In this document: positions 5,915 through 56,275 of the stretch, piece after piece
Layout: every line of letters begins with the position of its first letter
Position numbering within the stretch: the first letter of the stretch is position 1
From: Chloroflexota bacterium
GTDB taxonomy: Bacteria > Chloroflexota > Dehalococcoidia > Lucifugimonadales > UBA2985
Direction: 5' to 3'
Assembly (NCBI GenBank): GCA_028877205.1
Contig: JAPPHY010000002.1
Span: 13,994 to 77,993 of the forward strand
DNA length: 64,000 bases
The notes under the pieces: generated by a model
Databases searched by the model: none
What the model was told of the DNA's origin: nothing
The model's input: only the letters and a program-made list of their open reading frames with translations
Position numbers and translations under genes: made by a program

Positions 5915-8933
<3,019 letters not shown>

Positions 8934-8973: not shown

Positions 8974-9048
8974 CGCGGGGTGGAGCAGTGGCAGCTCGTC
9001 GGGCTCATAACCCGAAGGTCGTTGGTTCAAATCCAACCCCCGCTACCA
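8974..9048 (+). tRNA. initiator tRNA-fMet (CAT), CCA encoded
   Basis: CGCGGGGTGGAGCAG...GGGCTCATAACCCGAAGGTCGTTGGTTCAAATCCAACCCCCGCTACCA. It is near-identical in the acceptor and anticodon stems to E. coli tRNA-fMet, including the three G-C pairs in the anticodon stem. Confidence 0.95.
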
Positions 9049-43894: not shown

Positions 43895-44047
43895 CCGGGG
43901 CTCAGGCTGCCGCCTTCCGGCCAGCGGCGTGTTTACATTCGTAATACATTCTTCAGTGCATCGTAAGCGGCGACCAGCCTGTCATGATGCGCGCTCGTCG
44001 GCCAATCTAGTACAATGGTAGTAGACCAAGCTACGGGGAGGCCGCGA

Positions 44048-44665
44048 ATGGCCCACCATGACCACAACCATCGGGTCACGACAGCTGAAGGGCGGAGGCC
44101 CGCTGTAAGGCGATTCCTTCCACTTGTGAGCCTGCTTCTTGTTTCAGCTCTATTGCTTGCGGTTGCGGCCTGCTCCAATGGCGGGACAACGGATCCAACG
44201 TCCGGGTCGGACCTGGAGGCCGCGCCGGACTTCGAGTTCACGCTCTACCAGGGCGAGGGCGAGCTTGGCGGTTCCGAGCTCAGCATGTCTGACCTGCAGG
44301 GCAAACCCGTGGTGCTCAACTTCTGGGCCGGGCTCTGTCCGCCGTGCCGCGCAGAGATGCCGGACTTCCAGGCCTTCCAGGATGAGAATCGTGACCGGCT
44401 CACCGTTCTGGGCATAGACGTGGGTCAGTTCACCAACCTCGGCAGTCAGGAGGACGCCAAGCTCCTGCTGACCGACCTCGGCGTCACCTATCCGGCGGGC
44501 TACACTACCGACGGCACCATCATGCGCAGATACGAGGTGCTCGGCATGCCGACCACGGTGTTCATCAACTCCCGCGGCGAGGTGTTCCGAAACTGGGGAG
44601 GGATCCTGGACCACGAGAAGCTGCAGGAGATAGCCGACGAGATGCTCGCCGAGGAGACGGGCTAA
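44048..44665 (+). CDS. TlpA/ResA-family thiol-disulfide oxidoreductase lipoprotein
   Basis: Lipobox LLAVAAC. Thioredoxin motif WAGLCPPCRAEMP. The ATG at 44048 follows GGGGAGG. His-rich N-terminus HHDHNH. Confidence 0.85.
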   Translation: MAHHDHNHRVTTAEGRRPAVRRFLPLVSLLLVSALLLAVAACSNGGTTDPTSGSDLEAAPDFEFTLYQGEGELGGSELSMSDLQGKPVVLNFWAGLCPPCRAEMPDFQAFQDENRDRLTVLGIDVGQFTNLGSQEDAKLLLTDLGVTYPAGYTTDGTIMRRYEVLGMPTTVFINSRGEVFRNWGGILDHEKLQEIADEMLAEETG

Positions 44666-44700
44666 CCGACGCAAGCCGCGCCAGCACGGGGAGGGTAGTC

Positions 44701-45591
44701 ATGTCTATGTCAAGCGCTATGTCGGATCCGGGCCTGCTCAAGAAGGTCCTGGTGCCCGCCGTCGTAGCGGCCGTTTCCCTTACGACAGCCTTCGTAGGCG
44801 CGCTGGTCCTGGGCAGGTCCGACGGCATTGACGGTGTCAACAAGTTCGTCGAGACGCTCTCCGGCGACTCGGGAAACGTGCTGCGGGGCCTGGCGCCGCT
44901 GGGCTTTGCCTACGCTGCTGGCATGGTCTCCGCCGTCAACCCCTGCGGATTCGTCATGCTGCCCGCGTACCTGGGGTTGTATCTGGGCGTCAACGACAAG
45001 GATGCTGCCCAGGTGAATCCGCTCGTGCACGTCTTCCGCGCGATGAAGGTGGGCGGATCCGTCACGCTTGGTTTCGTCGTCTTGTTCGGAACCGCGGGCA
45101 TGCTGATGGCGGTTGGCGCGCGGGCCGCGGTGGTGGACATCCTGCCGTACCTTGGACTGGTCATAGGCATAGCGCTGGCGTTGGCCGGCTCCTGGATGGT
45201 GGGTGGGGGCAAGCTGTACTCCGGCTTCGCCGCGCAGGCGGCCTCAAGAATAGGCGACCCCGGGCAGGTGAATGCCAAGGGCTACTTCCTGTTCGGACTG
45301 AGCTACGGCATCGCCTCGCTGAGCTGCACGCTACCGATCTTCCTGTCGGTCATCGGCACGAGCTTCGCGGTGTCGGAGATCGGCACGTCGCTGGGGCAGT
45401 TCATCCTGTACGCCGTTGGCATGGGCACGGTGATCCTGGCGCTGACGCTTGGGATGGCGTTCTTCAAGGGCGCGATGCTGGGCACCCTGCGCAAGGCGCT
45501 GCCGTACGTGCAGCCCATAGGCTCGTGGCTGATGGTCGTCGCCGGGTCGTACATCGTGTTCTACTGGCTCACGATCGGGGATCTGCTGTAG
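44701..45591 (+). CDS. ccdA: cytochrome c biogenesis protein CcdA (DsbD-family transmembrane reductant transporter)
   Basis: Multi-TM protein with conserved Cys in AVNPCGFVMLP and ASLSCTLPIF. Adjacent to the TlpA-like gene. Confidence 0.8.
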   Translation: MSMSSAMSDPGLLKKVLVPAVVAAVSLTTAFVGALVLGRSDGIDGVNKFVETLSGDSGNVLRGLAPLGFAYAAGMVSAVNPCGFVMLPAYLGLYLGVNDKDAAQVNPLVHVFRAMKVGGSVTLGFVVLFGTAGMLMAVGARAAVVDILPYLGLVIGIALALAGSWMVGGGKLYSGFAAQAASRIGDPGQVNAKGYFLFGLSYGIASLSCTLPIFLSVIGTSFAVSEIGTSLGQFILYAVGMGTVILALTLGMAFFKGAMLGTLRKALPYVQPIGSWLMVVAGSYIVFYWLTIGDLL

Positions 45592-47381: not shown

Positions 47382-48973
47382 CCGAGGAAGCCCTGGCAGA
47401 CCTGGAGCGCATGGACCTGGTGGCGCGCGTCTGGGCCAGAGACCACACCGCGTGGAAGCCTGACCCAACGGAGATAGCCGACCGGCTGGGCTGGCTCGAT
47501 GTGGCCCGCGCCATGCAGGCGAACGTCCCCGATTTGCAGGCCTTCGCAGAGGAGGCGCGTAGCGAGGGCATCCGGCACGTCGTGCTTCTGGGCATGGGCG
47601 GCAGCAGCCTTGGGCCGGAGGTGGTTCGCCAGACGTTTGGGAGCGCGTCCGGCTACCCAGAGCTCATCGTGCTGGACTCCACCGTGCCGGACACCGTCAT
47701 GGCCGTCACGCGTGAGATCGACACGGCCACGACCCTCTTCTCCGTATCCTCCAAGTCCGGCACCACCACGGAGCCGCTGGCGCTCTACGCCCACTTCCGC
47801 GCCCTCGTGGAGAGCGCCGTCGGAGCCGAGAACGCGGGACGCAACTTCTTCGCGATCACGGATGCGGGCACTCCGCTTGAGGCAATGGCCCGCGATAACG
47901 GCTTCCGGCGCGCATTCCTGAACCCCGCAGACATCGGGGGCCGCTACTCCGTGCTCTCGTACTTCGGGCTCGCGCCCTCGGCGCTCACCGGCCTGGATGT
48001 TGCCAAGCTGCTCGACAGGGCCGCGGGTATGATGGACGCCTGCGGTCCAAACGTGCCCGTGCGGGAGAATCCCGCCGCGCTGCTTGGTGCCGCGATGGCC
48101 GGTCACGCAACGCAGGGACGGGACAAGCTGACGCTGGTCACGTCGCCGTCGATCGCGGCATTTGGGCTTTGGGCGGAGCAGCTAATCGCCGAGAGTCTGG
48201 GCAAGGAGGGCCGTGGCAAAGGCCCCGTTGCCGGCGAGCCGCGCCTCGATCCCGCCTACTCCGGCGACGACCGGCTGTTCGTCCACCTGCGGCTGGACGG
48301 CGACGGGGACGATGCCGAGGACGCCGCGATCGACGCTATCGAGACAGCCGGGCTGCCAGTCGTGCGCCTGGAGCTGCGTGACCGTTACGACCTGGGCGCC
48401 GAGTTCTTCCGGTGGGAGCTGGCAACGGCCATTGCAGGCGCGGTCCTGGGCATTCACCCGTTCGACCAGCCCAACGTGCAGCAGGCCAAGGACCAGACCC
48501 TGCTGGTGCTCGACGAGTGCAATCGCCTGGGCAGCCTGCCGGACGTGGAGGCGCCCGGCTCTCTCGCCGGCCTGCTGTCCACTGCCCGCAAGGGAGACTA
48601 CCTTTCGATTATGGCATACGTGCGCCAGACGCCGGAGACGGACAACGCCCTGAACGCCCTGAGGCGCAGCGTGGCGGAGCGTTGGGGAATCGCAACCACG
48701 CTGGGCTACGGCCCGCGCTACCTTCACTCCACCGGGCAGGTGCACAAGGGCGGCCCGGACACCGGCATCTATCTGCTGCTTACTGCGGAGCCCGCAGAGG
48801 ACGCGCCGGTTCCCGGCGAGTCGTTCTCCTTTGGCACGCTCGCCGAGGCGCAGGCTCTCGGAGACCTGAGGGCGCTGCAGGCGCTGGGCAGGCGAGTGGC
48901 CAGGATTCACCTGCCGTCTGCTGACGCTGCGAGCCTTGGCAAGCTGGCCGCGGAATCGCCCGCGAGCGTCTGA
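47378..48973 (+). CDS. pgi: glucose-6-phosphate isomerase
   Basis: VLLGMGGSSLGPEV and SKSGTTTEP SIS-domain motifs. ATGA overlap with tal. Confidence 0.85.
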   Translation: MTEEALADLERMDLVARVWARDHTAWKPDPTEIADRLGWLDVARAMQANVPDLQAFAEEARSEGIRHVVLLGMGGSSLGPEVVRQTFGSASGYPELIVLDSTVPDTVMAVTREIDTATTLFSVSSKSGTTTEPLALYAHFRALVESAVGAENAGRNFFAITDAGTPLEAMARDNGFRRAFLNPADIGGRYSVLSYFGLAPSALTGLDVAKLLDRAAGMMDACGPNVPVRENPAALLGAAMAGHATQGRDKLTLVTSPSIAAFGLWAEQLIAESLGKEGRGKGPVAGEPRLDPAYSGDDRLFVHLRLDGDGDDAEDAAIDAIETAGLPVVRLELRDRYDLGAEFFRWELATAIAGAVLGIHPFDQPNVQQAKDQTLLVLDECNRLGSLPDVEAPGSLAGLLSTARKGDYLSIMAYVRQTPETDNALNALRRSVAERWGIATTLGYGPRYLHSTGQVHKGGPDTGIYLLLTAEPAEDAPVPGESFSFGTLAEAQALGDLRALQALGRRVARIHLPSADAASLGKLAAESPASV

Positions 48974-49020
48974 GCGCAAGCCCAACCACCGGGCACGCAC
49001 ATCAATGAAGGGAGCGATCC

Positions 49021-49929
49021 ATGGAGCTTGGCATGGTGGGTCTCGGTCGCATGGGCGGCAATATGACGCTGCGCCTGCTGCGCGCCGACCACCGCGTTGT
49101 CGTATTCGATCCGCAGGCTGAGGCGGTGCGCGCGCTCAGCGGGGAGGGAGCTGCTGGGGCCGGATCGCTCGCCGAGCTTGTCGACATGCTAGCGCAGCCG
49201 CGAGCCGTCTGGGTCATGGTGCCCGCGGGCGAAGCCACGGAGACCACCATCAATACCCTCGCGGAGTGCATGTCACCGGGCGACACTGTGATAGACGGAG
49301 GCAACTCCAACTATAAGGACAGCATGCGCCGCGCCGAGGCCCTGGCCCCGCTCGGCATCTCATTCCTGGACGCAGGCACTAGCGGCGGCGTATGGGGCCT
49401 GGCCGGGGGCTACAGCCTCATGGTGGGCGGCGACAAGGAGGCGTTTCGGCGGTTGGAGCCTATCTTCCAGTCGCTTGCGCCCGGACCTGACAGGGGCTAT
49501 GGGCGCGTGGGCCCGGCGGGCGCGGGTCACTTCGTGAAGATGGTGCACAACGGCATCGAGTACGGCCTCATGCAGGCGTACGCGGAGGGCTTCGAGCTGA
49601 TGCGCGCCAAGACAGACTTCGATTTGGATCTAGCGCAGGTCTCGCAGATCTGGAGGCACGGCAGCGTGGTGCGCTCGTGGCTGCTGGAGCTGACGGCCGC
49701 GGCGCTCGAGGAGGACCCGGGACTGGAGTCGATCCAGGCCTACGTGGAGGACTCCGGCGAGGGACGCTGGACGGTGCAGGAGGGCGTGGAGCTTAGCGTG
49801 CCGACGCCCGTTATCAGCCTGGCGCTGCAGGCGCGCTTCCGCTCCCGGCAGGACCAGCCATTCGGCGCGAAGCTGCTGGCCGCGATGCGCAACCAGTTCG
49901 GCGGCCACGCCGTGCGCAGGGCCGAGTAG
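49021..49929 (+). CDS. gnd: 6-phosphogluconate dehydrogenase, decarboxylating (short Gnd-like form)
   Basis: MELGMVGLGRMGGNM Rossmann, GGNSNYKDS, FVKMVHNGIEYG. Confidence 0.85.
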   Translation: MELGMVGLGRMGGNMTLRLLRADHRVVVFDPQAEAVRALSGEGAAGAGSLAELVDMLAQPRAVWVMVPAGEATETTINTLAECMSPGDTVIDGGNSNYKDSMRRAEALAPLGISFLDAGTSGGVWGLAGGYSLMVGGDKEAFRRLEPIFQSLAPGPDRGYGRVGPAGAGHFVKMVHNGIEYGLMQAYAEGFELMRAKTDFDLDLAQVSQIWRHGSVVRSWLLELTAAALEEDPGLESIQAYVEDSGEGRWTVQEGVELSVPTPVISLALQARFRSRQDQPFGAKLLAAMRNQFGGHAVRRAE

Positions 49930-49971
49930 AGACGCCGGCGCCGCCTGTATCCGGCCGGAGGGAGGCCACCA

Positions 49972-50211
49972 ATGTGCCGCAGCATAAAGACACTCAGGGG
50001 TACTGACGGCCCGGTGACTGAGGAGGAGATCCGCGCGGCGTCGCTACAGTTCGTGCGTAAGGTGTCGGGCTACCGAATGCCCTCGAAGGCGAATGAGGCG
50101 CCTTTCGAGGCAGCCGTCGACGAAGTGGCCGTGGCGGTCGATAAGCTGCTTTCGTCGCTGGCTTCGCCGCGTAGCCGCGCGGGTCGCGCTGACGCCGCGT
50201 CGGAGCGATGA
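49972..50211 (+). CDS. DUF2277-family protein
   Basis: MCRSIKTLRG...TEEEIRAASLQFVRKVSG matches the conserved DUF2277 N-terminus as I recall it. Confidence 0.65.
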   Translation: MCRSIKTLRGTDGPVTEEEIRAASLQFVRKVSGYRMPSKANEAPFEAAVDEVAVAVDKLLSSLASPRSRAGRADAASER

Positions 50212-50346
50212 CATCAGCCGTCAAGGCGCGCTATAATTGCACAGCCGCGTTTTCTGTGGGCCTTCCCCTTGCGCACGTATTTGCGCCCGCTGGGCGGTTT
50301 GAGTCCGAACCCCGTTAATCCACGTCTGCGTTAGAAGGAGAAAAAC

Positions 50347-51192
50347 ATGGGCAAACTTGACGGAAAAGTTGTCATTGTTACGGGAGCCAGCAGGGGAATT
50401 GGCGAGTCCATCGCCAAGATGTTCGCCGCTGAAGGCGGCAAGATTGTGTGTGCGGCCCGCACGCTTCGCGAGGGCGACCACCAGCTGGCCGGTTCGCTGG
50501 AGACGACGGTCGCCGCGATCCGCGACGCCGGCGGCGAGGCGACCGCGGTCGCGTCCAACATCTCGGAGCCGGAGCAGTGCGAGGCCCTGGTCGAGGCGGC
50601 TCGCCAGGCCTACGGCCCCGTGGATATCCTTGTGAACAACGCCGCGCTCCTGTACGCCGTGGCCACCAAGGACTACCCGCTCAACCGGTGGATGCGCACG
50701 TGGGCCGTGAACGTGCATGGCCCATTCACCCTCAGCCAGCTGGTGCTGAACGACATGATCGAGCGCGGCAGCGGCCGCATAGTGAACATCTCGTCCGGCG
50801 CGGCCACGGGTCCCGGACGCGGCCCGTACGAAAGCCCCGGCGGCAGCTCAGTCTACGGAACGCAGAAGGCTGCGCTGGAGCGGCTCACACAGGGCCTGGC
50901 GGCGGAGGTGTACCAGTACGGCGTGGGCGTGTCCGCGTTCTCGCCGTCGCAGTTCGTGCCCACGGTGGGCTCCATGTTCGCGCAGGGCAGGACGTCGGTG
51001 GACCCGAACACCACGGAGTCGCCGGAGACGATGGCGATGGCCGCGCTGCTTCTGTCCACCGAGCCGCTCGAAAAGGTGGCCGGCCGGGTGACCTACAGCC
51101 AGCAGATACTAAACGAGTTCGGCTGGATCACGGACGCCAGGGGCACTGGTGTTGACCCGGAGCGGATGGGGAGCGGCTTCAGCCGGATTTAG
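50347..51192 (+). CDS. SDR-family oxidoreductase
   Basis: VVIVTGASRGIGESIA (TGxxxGxG), NNAA, and the YGTQKAAL catalytic YxxxK. Confidence 0.85.
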   Translation: MGKLDGKVVIVTGASRGIGESIAKMFAAEGGKIVCAARTLREGDHQLAGSLETTVAAIRDAGGEATAVASNISEPEQCEALVEAARQAYGPVDILVNNAALLYAVATKDYPLNRWMRTWAVNVHGPFTLSQLVLNDMIERGSGRIVNISSGAATGPGRGPYESPGGSSVYGTQKAALERLTQGLAAEVYQYGVGVSAFSPSQFVPTVGSMFAQGRTSVDPNTTESPETMAMAALLLSTEPLEKVAGRVTYSQQILNEFGWITDARGTGVDPERMGSGFSRI

Positions 51193-51310
51193 TGCGGGCG
51201 AGGTTCGTGCTGGCCCCGCGGCGAGTTGGCTTCCGCCTCTCGCCGCGCACAACGACGATTTCGAATCCGAAGCCGGGGCCTGAGCATCTAATTCAGTAAG
51301 AGCGCGCGGC

Positions 51311-52468
51311 ATGAGAACACCCCTGCCCATAGCCACAATACTAGCGGCCCTGCTGCTGTTCGCGGCCGCGTGCGACTCTCCGGACGAGGCGGCCAGCCCG
51401 ACGGATACGCCTGTGCCGACCGTCACACCTCTGCCGACGTCCACGCCGGCACCCACACTCACGCCTGAGCCGACGCCCACGGAGGAGAAGGCCGACTTCA
51501 GGCCCGGCCCTGAGGACATCATAACCCTGCTCCCATACGACGCGATCAAGGCAGTCCTGGATCCGCGCCTGGTCGACGTGGAGTGGGCGAACCAGCAGAT
51601 GACGGACCTGGAGCAGGTCATCGGCGTGTCGATCGGCGGCGAGCATCGCGCCTATCCGATATACATGCTCAGCAGCCGCGAGATCGTGAACGACGTCGTG
51701 GGAGGTGTACCGATCGCGGTCACGTGGTGACCGCTCTGCTACTCGAGCATAGTTTATGCTCGCGAGATTGGAGACCAGGTCCACACCTTCGGCGTGTCCG
51801 GCAAGCTGGTGATGAACGCGCTGGTCATGTACGACCACCAGACCGACACGCTTTGGAGCCACTTCACGGGAGACGCCATATACGGGGAGCTGGAGGGCAC
51901 CAAGCTGGAGATCGTGCCTGCCCTGCACACCACCTGGCTGCGATGGAAGGAGCTTCACCCGGACACTCTGGTGCTGGACAAGCGGGGCTTCTACCGCTCC
52001 GACATCTACGAGTACTACTACGAGACCGGCGGAGCGGGCGTCATAGGCGAGGCCAACATCGACGACCGGTTGTACCTAAAGGAGTTCGTGGTTGGGCTGG
52101 TGCTCGACGGGCAGGCCAAGGCCTATCCCTTCGGCGACCTCAACGGTACGCCTGTTGTGAACGACACCTTCGCCGGCCGAGAGCTGGTGGTGACGTTCGA
52201 GACTCGCGCAGCCACTGGCAGCGTCTTCAGCCGCGTGGTGGACAGGGAGACGCTGACATTCCAGGAGACCGGTGAGGAGGTGCCCGGCGGCCCGACCATG
52301 ACCGACGACCAGACCGGCAGCGTCTGGCTCATGCCCACCGGCGAGGCAATCGAGGGCGAGCTGGAGGGTACTACACTGGAGCGTATTCCCTCCAACTACT
52401 CGTTCTGGTTCTCCTGGAATGACTACTACCCCAACACCCTGCTATACCCGGAGGACGGGCCCAGCTGA
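51311..52468 (+). CDS. DUF3179-like lipoprotein, candidate selenoprotein (in-frame UGA at 51728..51730)
   Basis: ORFs 51311..51730 and 51794..52468 share one frame and are separated only by that TGA. Read-through gives ...GGVPIAVTW-U-PLCYSSIVYAREIGDQVHTFGVSGKLVMNALVMYDHQTDTLWSHF. Lipobox LLFAAAC. Confidence 0.6.
51744..51762 (+). promoter_or_regulatory. candidate bacterial SECIS hairpin
   Basis: CGAGCATA-GTT-TATGCTCG, an 8-bp stem starting 13 nt after the UGA, with a G-first apical loop. The selD hairpin has the same GUU loop. Confidence 0.5.
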
Positions 52469-52482
52469 TTGCAGAGCCCTGC

Positions 52483-52700
52483 TGTCCGCTCATTCCCTTC
52501 GACACGCTCAGACCCTGCCCCCGTATCAGGGTACGGGGCAGGCTCCGCACTAGATGCGGAGATGAGCGGACAATTTAAGCCCGCTCGTGGTGAGCCTGTC
52601 GAACCACACGGGCGGGCCGCGCCCCCGCTCCCGTCATTGCGGCGGAAGCCGCAGTCCAGCACGCCCATTCGTGGTGAGCCTCTCGAACCAAGTGAGTGGG
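52483..52700. repeat. cluster of REP-like elements (types B, A, C, A)
   Basis: Type B reverse with nested hairpins at 52483..52572. Type A at 52579..52617. Type C reverse at 52631..52660, differing at 2 positions from 37833..37862. Type A at 52664..52700. Confidence 0.85.
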
Positions 52701-52735
52701 CTAAGCTGAGAGTGCGACGGCGTTTCGAGTGGGGT

Positions 52736-52810
52736 TGGAGCGGGTGATGGGGATCGAACCCACGACAACTTGCTTGGGAAGCAAGAGCTCTACCACTGAG
52801 CTACACCCGC
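52736..52810 (-). tRNA. tRNA-Gly (CCC), CCA encoded
   Basis: Reverse complement GCGGGTGTAGCTCAGTGGTAGAGCTCTTGCTTCCCAAGCAAGTTGTCGTGGGTTCGATCCCCATCACCCGCTCCA with anticodon loop TTCCCAA. Confidence 0.9.
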
Positions 52811-53030
52811 TCATGAAGCGGTCCGGGGCTCCGAACGCCGTCGGGCCGGCGTCCGGAACGCACGCAAATATGCTAGCACACGGAGCATCAGGGCGCTACC
52901 GTCCGGCGGTGCAGGCGTGTACGCATTGGCGTCGCGAGCTTTGACGTGTAGACGGCTTAGCTGTAAAGTATGGTGGTCGCCCGGCCGCACCGTGGCGAGT
53001 GGGCGCTTCACAGCGGAGTCAACTGGATAT

Positions 53031-53477
53031 ATGAACATCAGAAATCGGCTCAGATACGGCGAGACGATCATCTCGGATCATCACCCGTACTATGCCACCT
53101 CTCAGCGCATCATCCTCTACCATGAAGTGGAGGGGCGCGAGGAGATGTGGGAGTTGCCGTACGCCCGCGTGACTTCCGTGGAGGTGGTGAAGCTGCCGAG
53201 GCACAAGATGATGGTGGCGGGAACGCTGCTGATCGTGGGCGGCGCCATCATGTCGTCGTATGGATTCATCACGTCGATTCCCTCGATCCTGGCGGGCATA
53301 GGCGCGCTCGTGTACGGCGGCATAGGGCGGGAGGCCTACTACCAGATCAACGCCAACGGCATGTCCAAGGAAGAGGCTGCCAAGTGGCGGCTGGTCTACT
53401 GGGGCAGCGGGAGCTTCGTGCGCACCGTTCAGACCGTCCTTGGAGAGCGCAACGGCAGCTACCGAGACGAGTTCTAG
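53031..53477 (+). CDS. membrane protein with bacterial PH-like N-terminal segment, hypothetical
   Basis: Internal ATG of ORF 52917..53477. Two adjacent hydrophobic helices (MVAGTLLIVGGAIM, IPSILAGIGALVYGG). Confidence 0.45.
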   Translation: MNIRNRLRYGETIISDHHPYYATSQRIILYHEVEGREEMWELPYARVTSVEVVKLPRHKMMVAGTLLIVGGAIMSSYGFITSIPSILAGIGALVYGGIGREAYYQINANGMSKEEAAKWRLVYWGSGSFVRTVQTVLGERNGSYRDEF

Positions 53478-54226
53478 CGCCCGGAGCCTTCAGCGAACTC
53501 CAACGCCATCTGAGCCACTTCCTCCGGCGACCTGCGGCCCGACGACGCCAGCTCATCGAGCATGGCTCTGCGGCGCTCCACATCCGCCTCCGCGCCTCGA
53601 AGGAACACCGGCGTGTCCACCGCCTCGAACCGGTCGTCCGACTCCACCCACTTGAACAGCTGCCGCCCCTCCGGCCTGCCGTCCCGCACGCGGTCGATCT
53701 CGTGTATTTCCGACACGCGCCGCCAGAAGGTCTCGTCGTCCTCGCCGAACCGGAGGATGTACAGCATCAGATCGATGCGCGAGGCGTCCTCGTCTGCGAC
53801 ACCACACCCTTCGCAGATGTCGTTGAACGTTTCCTCCAGGCCCGGCGCGTGCATTGACGTGACCAGGGAGTAGCCCACCGTCATGGCGTCGAACACGCGC
53901 TGCACCGGTTCGCCCCAGATGTAGCCGGGGACCGGTCCCCGGCTGAACTCCGGCACCACCAGGTAGCCGCCCGTCGCAGCCTCCTTGAGCCTGCCAACCT
54001 CCGTCTGGTCGGCGCCCAGCCGGTGCACCGGCACGTCCGGCGGCAGCAGCGACAGGACGGCGTTGAAGGTCGTGGTCTTGCCAGCCAGCCGCGGGATCGC
54101 GACCACCACGATCGACAACCTAGCGTCGACGGCAGCCCACAGGACGGCGGCCATGCGCGACGACATGGTGCCGTTGCGAATCAGGTCTACTATGGTGACG
54201 CTGTCAGGCGTGCTCAATGCAGTCAC
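53474..54226 (-). CDS. degenerate T2SS/T4SS-type (VirB11/CpaF-like) P-loop ATPase, 250 aa
   Basis: DLIRNGTMSSRMAAVLWAAVDARLSIVVVAIPRLAGKTTTFNAVLSLLP parallels the VirB11/CpaF segment preceding and including Walker A. The His-box-like TSMHA is present. GTG start 28 nt after the selD stop. Confidence 0.55.
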   Translation of the reverse strand: MTALSTPDSVTIVDLIRNGTMSSRMAAVLWAAVDARLSIVVVAIPRLAGKTTTFNAVLSLLPPDVPVHRLGADQTEVGRLKEAATGGYLVVPEFSRGPVPGYIWGEPVQRVFDAMTVGYSLVTSMHAPGLEETFNDICEGCGVADEDASRIDLMLYILRFGEDDETFWRRVSEIHEIDRVRDGRPEGRQLFKWVESDDRFEAVDTPVFLRGAEADVERRRAMLDELASSGRRSPEEVAQMALEFAEGSGR

Positions 54227-54253: not shown

Positions 54254-55300
54254 CTACGGGAGCACCTCGATCAAGTGCTGCCCGCCTTCGGCCATCTCAC
54301 CGATGACGGCCGACCCGCTCACGCCCCTGCGTGACAGCGCGGCGGTCAGCTCGGATAGCTTGGCGGGTGGAACGGACATGAGCAGACCGCCGGATGTCTG
54401 CGCGTCGCACAGGACGAGCTTCATCTCATCGCTCACCGACCCGTCCCACGCCGCAACGATGTCGACGGAGCTCAGGTTGCGACGGGTGCCGCCCGGCGCG
54501 ACGCCGCTGCAAACGAGATCCCACGTCCCATCGATCAGCGGCACGTCTGACGCTCGAACTCGCGCGGTCACGCCGGAGGCCTCGGCCATAGACTTCAGGT
54601 GGCCCAGCAGTCCGAACCCGGTGACGTCCGTGCAGGCGTTGACCCCAACCTCCGTCATCGCCTCCGAGGCGTCGCGGTTGAGGGCGCTCATCACCTCGAT
54701 GGCGCTCTCCAATACGGCATCGTCCACGACTCCCTGCTTGCCGGCCGTGGTGATGATGCCCGTGCCCAACGGCTTGGTGAGCAGCAGCAGGTCGCCCGCG
54801 CAGGCGGTGTCGATGCCGACGTGTCCGCCCGGCTGCACGGTACCTGTAACCGCCATTCCGTACTTGGGCTCTTTGTCGTCCAGCGTGTGTCCGCCCACGA
54901 TGAGCACGCCCGCCTCGGCGGCCTTGGCCGCGCCTCCCTTCAGAATCTCGCCGAGAATGTCCATCGGCAGGTCTATAGGGAAGCACACCAGGTTCATGGC
55001 CAGGAGCGGCTTGCCTCCCATAGCGTACACGTCGCTGAAGGCATTGGCCGCGGCGATGGCCCCGAAGTGCCACGGGTCGTCCACGATTGGTGGAAAGATG
55101 TCGACGGTCTGCACGATAGCGAGGTCGTCCCGCAGGCGGTAGACTGCCGCGTCGTCGCGCGTGCCTATCCCCACCAGCAGGTTGGGGTCATCGAAGGTCG
55201 GCAGCCGGCGCAGAACCTGCGCCAGGTCCTCTGGACTGAACTTGGATGCTCAGCCGGCGCAACTGGCCAGGCTGGTCAGCCGAATCTGCTCACCCTGCAA
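54254..55300 (-). CDS. selD: selenide, water dikinase (selenophosphate synthetase), Sec-containing (UGA at 55250..55252)
   Basis: The ORF-track piece 54254..55174 carries GIGTRDDAAVY, DIFPPIVDDP and GGHT motifs. The same frame upstream reads (TTG)QGEQIRLTSLASCAG-U-ASKFSPEDLAQVLRRLPTFDDPNLLV. The UGA is codon 17, as is Cys17 of E. coli SelD. GGAGAAAGG lies 9 nt before the TTG. Confidence 0.85.
55205..55225 (-). promoter_or_regulatory. SECIS hairpin of selD
   Basis: CUGGCGCAG-GUU-CUGCGCCGG, a 9-bp stem (one G.U pair) starting 24 nt after the UGA. Confidence 0.6.
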
Positions 55301-55363: not shown

Positions 55364-56275
55364 CTAGACGTACCTCGCGCCGCTGTCCGGCAGAATGGTC
55401 ACCACCACGCGCCCTGAGCCCAGCCTGCTGGCCACCCGCAGCGCGGCCGCCACGTTCGCGCCGGAGGAGACGCCCACCAGCAGTCCCTCCTCGCTTGCCA
55501 GCCGCGCCGATACCGCCATTGCCTCCACGTCACTGACGGAAATGACCTCGTCCACCAGCGACATGTCGAGCAGCGGCGGCAGGAAGTCCGGCCCAAGGCC
55601 CGGAATTCCGTGGTCGCCCGGCTCGCCGCCGCTCAGGACCGGCGACGCCGCCGGCTCAACGGCCACCACGAGCGTATCGGGCCGTTGCTCCTTGAGCGCA
55701 CCGCCCACGCCCGTGATCGTTCCTCCGGTGCCCACACCTGCGACGAAGGCATCCACGCTGCCGCCCGTGTCCCCAAGGATCTCACTCGCGGTGGTCTCCC
55801 GATGGGCCCTGGGGTTGGCCGGATTCGTGAACTGGTCGATCCACACGTACGATGAGTCCTCCTGCACCAGCTTCTCCACGGCGTTGATGGCCCCGGCCAT
55901 GCCGTCAAGGGGGGACGTGGTCAGGATCTCGGCGCCCAGGTGGATCAGCAGCCGTCTCCGCTCCGGGGGCACTCCTTCCGGCATGGCGATGACGACCCGG
56001 TAGCCTCTGGCGGCGGCGACCATTGCAAGGGATATGCCGGAGTTGCCGCCGGTTGCCTCGATAAGCGTCTGGCCTGGGCGCAGCCTGCCCGACTCCTCCG
56101 CGTCCAGCACCATCGCCAGTGCGATGCGGTCCTTGACGCTGCCGGTGGGGTTGCAGCACTCCAGCTTGCAGAGCACGGCGGCGGAGCCCTCTTCCGGCAG
56201 TCGCTCAAGCGCCACCATCGGGGTGTTGCCTATGGCCTCCAGGACGCTGCGGCGCATGCGTGCGACGGCCTCCAC
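55364..56275 (-). CDS. cysK: cysteine synthase family PLP enzyme (CysK/CysM-like)
   Basis: NPTGSVKDR (PLP lysine), GTGGTITG, SSGAN motifs. 303 aa. Its stop is 63 nt upstream of the selD start. Confidence 0.85.
   Translation of the reverse strand: MEAVARMRRSVLEAIGNTPMVALERLPEEGSAAVLCKLECCNPTGSVKDRIALAMVLDAEESGRLRPGQTLIEATGGNSGISLAMVAAARGYRVVIAMPEGVPPERRRLLIHLGAEILTTSPLDGMAGAINAVEKLVQEDSSYVWIDQFTNPANPRAHRETTASEILGDTGGSVDAFVAGVGTGGTITGVGGALKEQRPDTLVVAVEPAASPVLSGGEPGDHGIPGLGPDFLPPLLDMSLVDEVISVSDVEAMAVSARLASEEGLLVGVSSGANVAAALRVASRLGSGRVVVTILPDSGARYV

Follow-up and report, generated by a model that had tools for sequence, protein, structure and literature searches.

A probable selenocysteine-containing DUF3179 protein and its in-frame SECIS-type hairpin in a Dehalococcoidia bacterium

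The gene at positions 51311-52468 of a 64-kb stretch of DNA from a Dehalococcoidia (Chloroflexota) bacterium (the whole stretch is referred to here as the window) very probably encodes a selenocysteine (Sec)-containing member of the DUF3179 (PF11376) family. The UGA at 51728 stands at the first Cys position of a conserved T-W-C-P-L-C motif and is kept as UGA across a large clade, and it is followed by a conserved, covarying hairpin whose geometry is that of a bacterial SECIS element. The original prediction, made from the sequence, had proposed a UxxC selenoprotein rather than a pseudogene; the Cys found at the aligned column of homologues, the TGA in 86 of 86 related genes, the covarying SECIS-type hairpin and a nearby Sec-type selD all agree with that proposal. 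The DUF3179 selenoproteins are an already catalogued family, and at least one public record already annotates this very gene as such.

The open reading frames 51311..51730 and 51794..52468 share one frame, and translation shows a single internal stop, the TGA at 51728-51730, whose read-through yields a protein of 385 amino acids. All of this, together with the LLFAAAC segment near the N-terminus, had been described beforehand and was seen in the sequence. The Sec context of the read-through protein is GGVPIAVTW-(UGA)-PLCYSSIVYAR, with FGVSGKL further on. When the protein was searched against Pfam with Cys in place of the UGA, it matched PF11376 with an E value of 9e-82 and 275.2 bits (cut-off 27) over profile positions 2-292 of 292, which places it in DUF3179, with the gathering score exceeded and the whole domain covered. 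No NCBIfam model matches the protein. The third-position GC content (GC3) of the gene is 0.85 upstream of the TGA and 0.87 downstream, and in a screen of 205 TGA-joined pairs of open reading frames in the window this was the sole high-GC3 case of its kind. No other selenoprotein gene stood out among those 205 pairs; selD was found separately. Since TGA is the terminator of 10 of the 33 confident long open reading frames in the window, the DUF3179 gene among them, a genome-wide reassignment of TGA was ruled out. The features of the locus are collected in Table 1.

Table 1. Features of the DUF3179 gene and of selD (positions in the window)
Feature	Position	Strand	Basis and remarks
DUF3179 (PF11376) selenoprotein gene, complete	51311..52468	+	385 codons and terminal TGA; read-through translation
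Predicted signal peptide ending in lipobox F-A-A-A-C	51311..51373	+	sequence; Cys21 codon 51371-51373
Sec codon UGA, residue 140, first position of U-P-L-C	51728..51730	+	Cys or TGA at the aligned column
Cys143 codon, resolving/partner Cys of UxxC	51737..51739	+	present in every aligned sequence shown
Bacterial SECIS core hairpin, 8-bp stem, 3-nt loop GUU (G then U)	51744..51762	+	fold, conservation; UGA-to-loop 21 nt; -8.9 kcal/mol; within the S-S-I-V-Y-A-R coding sequence
selD (selenide, water dikinase), Sec-form	54254..55300	-	TIGR00476 372 bits (cut-off 125); NF002098 352.6 bits (cut-off 299)
selD SECIS-like hairpin, 9-bp stem, 3-nt loop GUU (G then U)	55205..55225	-	UGA-to-loop 33 nt; -14.8 kcal/mol

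The aligned position of the UGA in homologues is a Cys. Among the best 120 database homologues, 56 span the column and 53 of these have Cys there, within T-[WY]-C-P-L-C. This is the segment that the original prediction had named for the family, with the UGA replacing its first Cys, and its suggestion that the column should hold Cys or, in relatives, TGA holds on both counts. The second Cys of the motif is also kept: the counterpart of Cys143 in the Cys homologue P0006 (C120) is at least 90% conserved. The gene thus shows the two marks of a DUF3179 selenoprotein (UxxC/T), a UGA aligned with the first Cys of CxxC and an intact reading frame downstream. In the homologues P0008, P0027 and P0037 the Sec/Cys column holds F, S or R (TWFPLC, TWSPLC and TWRPLC); S, if encoded by TCA, and R, if encoded by CGA or AGA, would each lie one base from TGA.

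The hairpin that follows the UGA is CGAGCAUA-GUU-UAUGCUCG. It begins 13 nt after the UGA, and its 8-bp stem and GUU loop are present as first described; the folding energy in Table 1 is that of the bare hairpin. A second hairpin of this type had been noted behind the UGA of selD, 3.5 kb from the DUF3179 gene, with the same loop. An in-frame TGA is indeed found there (55252-55250, in the motif SCAG-U-ASK), followed by CUGGCGCAG-GUU-CUGCGCCGG. The selD UGA and its hairpin are conserved in four related loci (L001, L002, L003 and L006), and the hairpin is identical in the first three of these. A cysK gene (55364-56275, minus strand) lies directly upstream of selD.

The published consensus for bacterial SECIS elements has an apical loop of 3-9 nt, an upper stem of 4-16 bp, a G in loop positions 1-2 that is usually followed by G or U, 16-37 nt from the UGA to the apical loop, and a minimum free energy of -7.5 kcal/mol or lower (PMC13188914). 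The DUF3179 and selD hairpins agree with every one of these points. In relatives whose closing pair is open the DUF3179 loop has 5 nt, and a loop of 3-5 nt fits the N-G-U-N-N of the consensus (the bSECISearch model, with E. coli fdhF as the prototype), with which the element also shares its place as an in-ORF stem-loop immediately 3' of the UGA. In Rfam, no SECIS family was found at the gathering score in the whole window and none at E values up to 10 around either UGA, and the DUF3179 hairpin is unrelated to these models in sequence.

A hairpin in one sequence is weak evidence alone, because 2.8% of the 1659 TGA trinucleotides in the window have, in SECIS-like geometry, a stem of 8 bp or more behind them. 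The single-sequence hairpin is thus only mildly unusual, and the weight rests on its conservation and covariation in relatives. A gap-free alignment was made of 78 distinct orthologous sequences. In it, 91% of the cells of the 8-bp helix are paired, and at four of the eight pairs both partners have changed. The helix changes comprise G-C to C-G (n=20), G-C to A-U (n=5), C-G to U-A or A-U (n=8) and A-U to G-C (n=1). In 500 shuffles neither the observed covariation score nor the observed percentage of paired cells was ever reached, and every slid register of the helix scored below the actual one. The loop G is invariant and the loop U is at least 90% conserved in the 78 sequences; because these two bases also form the start of a conserved Val codon, their conservation does not count as independent evidence.

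The stem lies inside codons, and the covariation consequently extends to the amino-acid sequence. The residues that flank I-V-Y switch jointly (G..A, A..G, A..S and S..A; window 51746-51766, alignment columns 22-24 and 34-36), with GGC/GCC, GCC/GGC, GCU/AGC and AGC/GCU as the corresponding codons. Within the stem, codons are held against the genomic GC3 bias: UAU encodes Tyr in 77 of the 78 sequences, NCG encodes Ser/Thr in 73, and the A- or U-ending codons AUA, GUU, UAU and GCU are kept despite a GC3 of 0.84 in the DUF3179 gene.

Genes that have Cys in place of Sec offer a comparison. Cys-form DUF3179 proteins resemble the Sec-forms in architecture (39-55% identity over the full length) and are often found in tandem with them, whereas their genes have TGT or TGC instead of TGA and the diverged ones are without the hairpin. 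The Sec-forms retain a mean of 6.8 of seven core pairs, and 76 of 93 genes are perfect, while seven diverged Cys-form genes have merely 3-5 of the seven. Two Cys-forms, L081:3424 (TGT) and L084:3439 (TGC), keep 6-7 of the seven pairs and both stand in tandem with Sec paralogues, and the simplest reading is that both were converted from Sec to Cys recently and that their SECIS is a relic. Arrays in which Sec- and Cys-forms stand in tandem occur at L081-L084, L009-L012, L022 and L057, and the L084 array consists of three Sec copies and one Cys copy.

The hairpin would, as in the established bacterial Sec pathway, recruit SelB-GTP-Sec-tRNA(Sec) to the ribosome so that the UGA is read as Sec, and the neighboring Sec-type SelD would provide selenophosphate for Sec synthesis. 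Of the genes of the Sec-decoding trait, selD is present within the window. The remaining machinery (selA, selB and tRNA-Sec) is presumed to be encoded elsewhere in the genome: motif scans gave no selA or selB in the 64-kb window or in any fetched locus, and tRNA-Sec was found neither by ARAGORN or Rfam in the window nor by ARAGORN in 60 loci. This result, together with the missing Rfam match, is what could be brought forward for a reading in which the UGA is bypassed or used without Sec, either by near-cognate insertion of Trp or Cys or by termination that leaves a 139-amino-acid lipoprotein, with the hairpin merely promoting read-through or pausing in a generic way or arising as a by-product of coding constraints. 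Misinsertion of Cys or Trp at Sec codons under selenium limitation is also documented in other systems. Such a use of the UGA is nevertheless very improbable here since the UGA takes the place of a catalytic-type Cys, in the classic Cys/Sec pairing, and the hairpin fits SECIS geometry down to the G-U at the start of its loop and is lost in the diverged Cys-forms. In addition, the selD of the window uses the same device, and the lineage is reported to be rich in selenoproteins, with 46-49 selenoprotein genes in Dehalococcoidia metagenome-assembled genomes (MAGs) (PMC13326102).

From a scan that took one genome for each species, 80 loci were obtained, nearly all of them labelled Dehalococcoidia, Chloroflexota or SAR202, with a best-segment identity to the query of 49-84%. 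TGA stands at exactly the Sec column in all 80 of the fetched genomes and, with tandem paralogues included, in 86 of 86 genes, each of which stays open for 236-259 codons from the TGA to the true stop. Scattered stops in relatives, which the original prediction had named as a sign of decay, were looked for and no other stop was found in the 86 genes. Conservation of the TGA with an open frame behind it excludes decay, sequencing error and scattered stops. It is therefore exceedingly improbable that a decaying DUF3179 gene acquired the TGA by nonsense mutation, or that a TGC or TGT was miscalled in sequencing or assembly. Either origin would agree with a lone in-frame stop in one sequence and with the splitting of the gene into 139 and 218 amino acids in the ENA and Logan gene calls; against both stand, besides the 86 genes, the even GC3 on the two sides of the TGA and the full-length Pfam match. 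The assemblies themselves argue in the same direction, as window positions 48347-53192 (4.8 kb) are 100% identical, TGA included, in three of them (NCBI GCA_028874555.1, contig JAPPJG010000007.1; an ENA scaffold; and a Logan contig of SRR10996926). In NCBI a single 385-residue product is recorded exactly over 51311-52468, and the TGA must accordingly be annotated there as translated.

The fragmentary gene calls recur in the databases. The other 64 of the best 120 homologues are mostly fragments of 213-245 amino acids (one has 314) that begin just past the Sec column, as happens when gene callers halt at the TGA. Public examples are the "DUF3179 domain-containing protein" records of NCBI Chloroflexi MAGs, 230-245 amino acids long and comprising the post-TGA part only (P0059-P0120; L089 and L091). 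Selenoprotein counts for Dehalococcoidia and SAR202 that are based on such calls will be too low. Two separate genes, a 139-amino-acid N-terminal lipoprotein and a separately initiated C-terminal protein of 224 amino acids, would match exactly the split made by gene callers, but this arrangement deserves next to no credence since the called starts are scattered from query residue 142 to 173 with no start conserved, the Pfam domain is continuous over the junction, the Cys-form homologues are single polypeptides and the C-terminal part would be without an export signal.

The Sec-containing protein is predicted to be exported. Its N-terminus reads MRTPLPIATILAALLLFAAAC followed by DSP and then by a Pro/Thr-rich linker that extends to about residue 60, and LLFAAAC (residues 15-21) fits a lipobox-type regular expression modelled on the PROSITE pattern. 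Lipobox-like N-termini are found in about one-third of the Sec-form relatives, and most of the others have a hydrophobic N-terminal segment; because of these N-termini the family appears, from sequence, to be extracytoplasmic and membrane-tethered. The 385-amino-acid precursor would thus be exported and lipid-modified at Cys21, with the Pro/Thr-rich linker tethering the domain outside the cytoplasmic membrane. Apart from the lipobox Cys, the U/CxxC pair is the only Cys content of the protein.

The structure of the domain was approached through the Cys homologue P0006, for which AlphaFold gave a model with a pLDDT of 91 and a pTM of 0.86 from a 54-sequence alignment. The model is all-beta and places C-P-L-C at the turn of a beta-hairpin (strands 110-117 and 122-127). 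By this model U140-P-L-C143 would lie at the corresponding turn of an all-beta, non-thioredoxin fold. A thioredoxin-fold thiol:disulfide oxidoreductase was rejected, because the all-beta model has the motif between two strands and no thioredoxin-fold matches were obtained. The extracytoplasmic UxxC selenoproteins that do have a thioredoxin fold (DsbA-like, thiol:disulfide interchange and TlpA-like proteins) are also exported or membrane-anchored and have a presumed redox role, but they would differ from DUF3179 in the fold if the modeled beta-hairpin position of C-x-x-C is correct. The best Foldseek matches in the PDB are weak ones to Rieske-type ferredoxin or NirD-like domains (E 0.02-0.5, target TM about 0.55), and a Rieske-type [2Fe-2S] domain was rejected since the fold matches are weak only and the CxH/CxxH ligand motifs are absent. 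Foldseek against a viral library returned one uncharacterised giant-virus protein. Sequence searches of the PDB, with the single protein and with a profile, gave no significant relative.

The chemistry of the UxxC centre, which may be redox or the binding of a soft metal, can be addressed by inference only; U140 and C143 would form either a selenylsulfide redox centre or a centre that binds a soft metal or metalloid. The neighborhoods of DUF3179 genes in relatives hold no conserved redox or metal partner. GNAT-like and sigma-factor-like genes, identified by eye, are syntenic with DUF3179 in sub-clades only, and one apparently conserved neighbor cluster was discarded as an artefact of antisense open reading frames. 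At 44015-45591 (plus strand), 6 kb upstream of the selenoprotein gene, a ResA/TlpA-like exported thioredoxin (CPPC) is followed by a multi-pass CcdA/DsbD-like protein, the latter recognized by eye and without an NCBIfam match. The pair could supply reducing power outside the membrane; its linkage to DUF3179 is not conserved in relatives.

A wider reading of the Sec-form as a lineage-wide, often tandem, surface-anchored selenoprotein of marine Dehalococcoidia/SAR202, with a UxxC on an all-beta non-thioredoxin scaffold, is put forward tentatively, as it is rather unlikely to hold in full. If it did, the protein would represent an uncharacterised extracytoplasmic selenium centre, redox-active or metal- or metalloid-binding, and not another Dsb-like oxidoreductase, and the tandem Cys paralogues in which the hairpin persists would show Sec-to-Cys conversion soon after the event. 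An extracytoplasmic UxxC that is conserved in bacteria abundant in the ocean makes a sensible target for experiments.

The novelty implied by the original prediction, which did not count DUF3179 among described selenoprotein families, did not hold. PF11376/DUF3179 is listed with the motif UxxC/T as a predicted selenoprotein family (PMC9312934), and DUF3179 is among the families "predicted with high confidence", with MDJ0986319.1 as its entry (PMC13188914). Both reviews credit the DUF3179 selenoproteins to Zhang and Gladyshev 2007, who worked on Olavius symbionts (PMC1976440). The 2007 text does not appear to use the name DUF3179, and the mapping of DUF3179 to one of its OS_HP families rests on the reviews. 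Compared by listed domain and motif, the present protein differs in nothing essential from the catalogued examples (MBW1804167.1 and MDJ0986319.1): the Pfam domain, the UxxC motif (U-P-L-C here), the Cys/Sec pairing and the SECIS downstream of the UGA are the same. The hosts differ, being a Dehalococcoidia MAG here and deltaproteobacterial Olavius symbionts in the credited paper. The discovery value is therefore little, since the selenoproteome literature already covers the family with its Sec position and motif, and the gene is already annotated across the TGA by NCBI. In practical terms it serves as a clean and well-controlled case of an in-ORF SECIS that constrains both codon and amino-acid choice, and by-products of some use are the set of covariation data, the relic SECIS of the tandem Cys paralogues and the scale of fragment annotations in the clade.

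Two further observations concern other parts of the window. A 23S rRNA gene (5915-8933) has a tRNA-Met directly after it (8974-9048); as Rfam finds no 5S or 16S rRNA anywhere in the 64-kb window, the rRNA genes look unlinked. Between a tRNA-Gly (52736-52810) and selD lies an open reading frame of 250 amino acids (53474-54226, minus strand) whose match to FlaI/bindosome-type ATPase profiles is confined to a short central segment (residues 249-306 of 527); it may encode a truncated or divergent ATPase.
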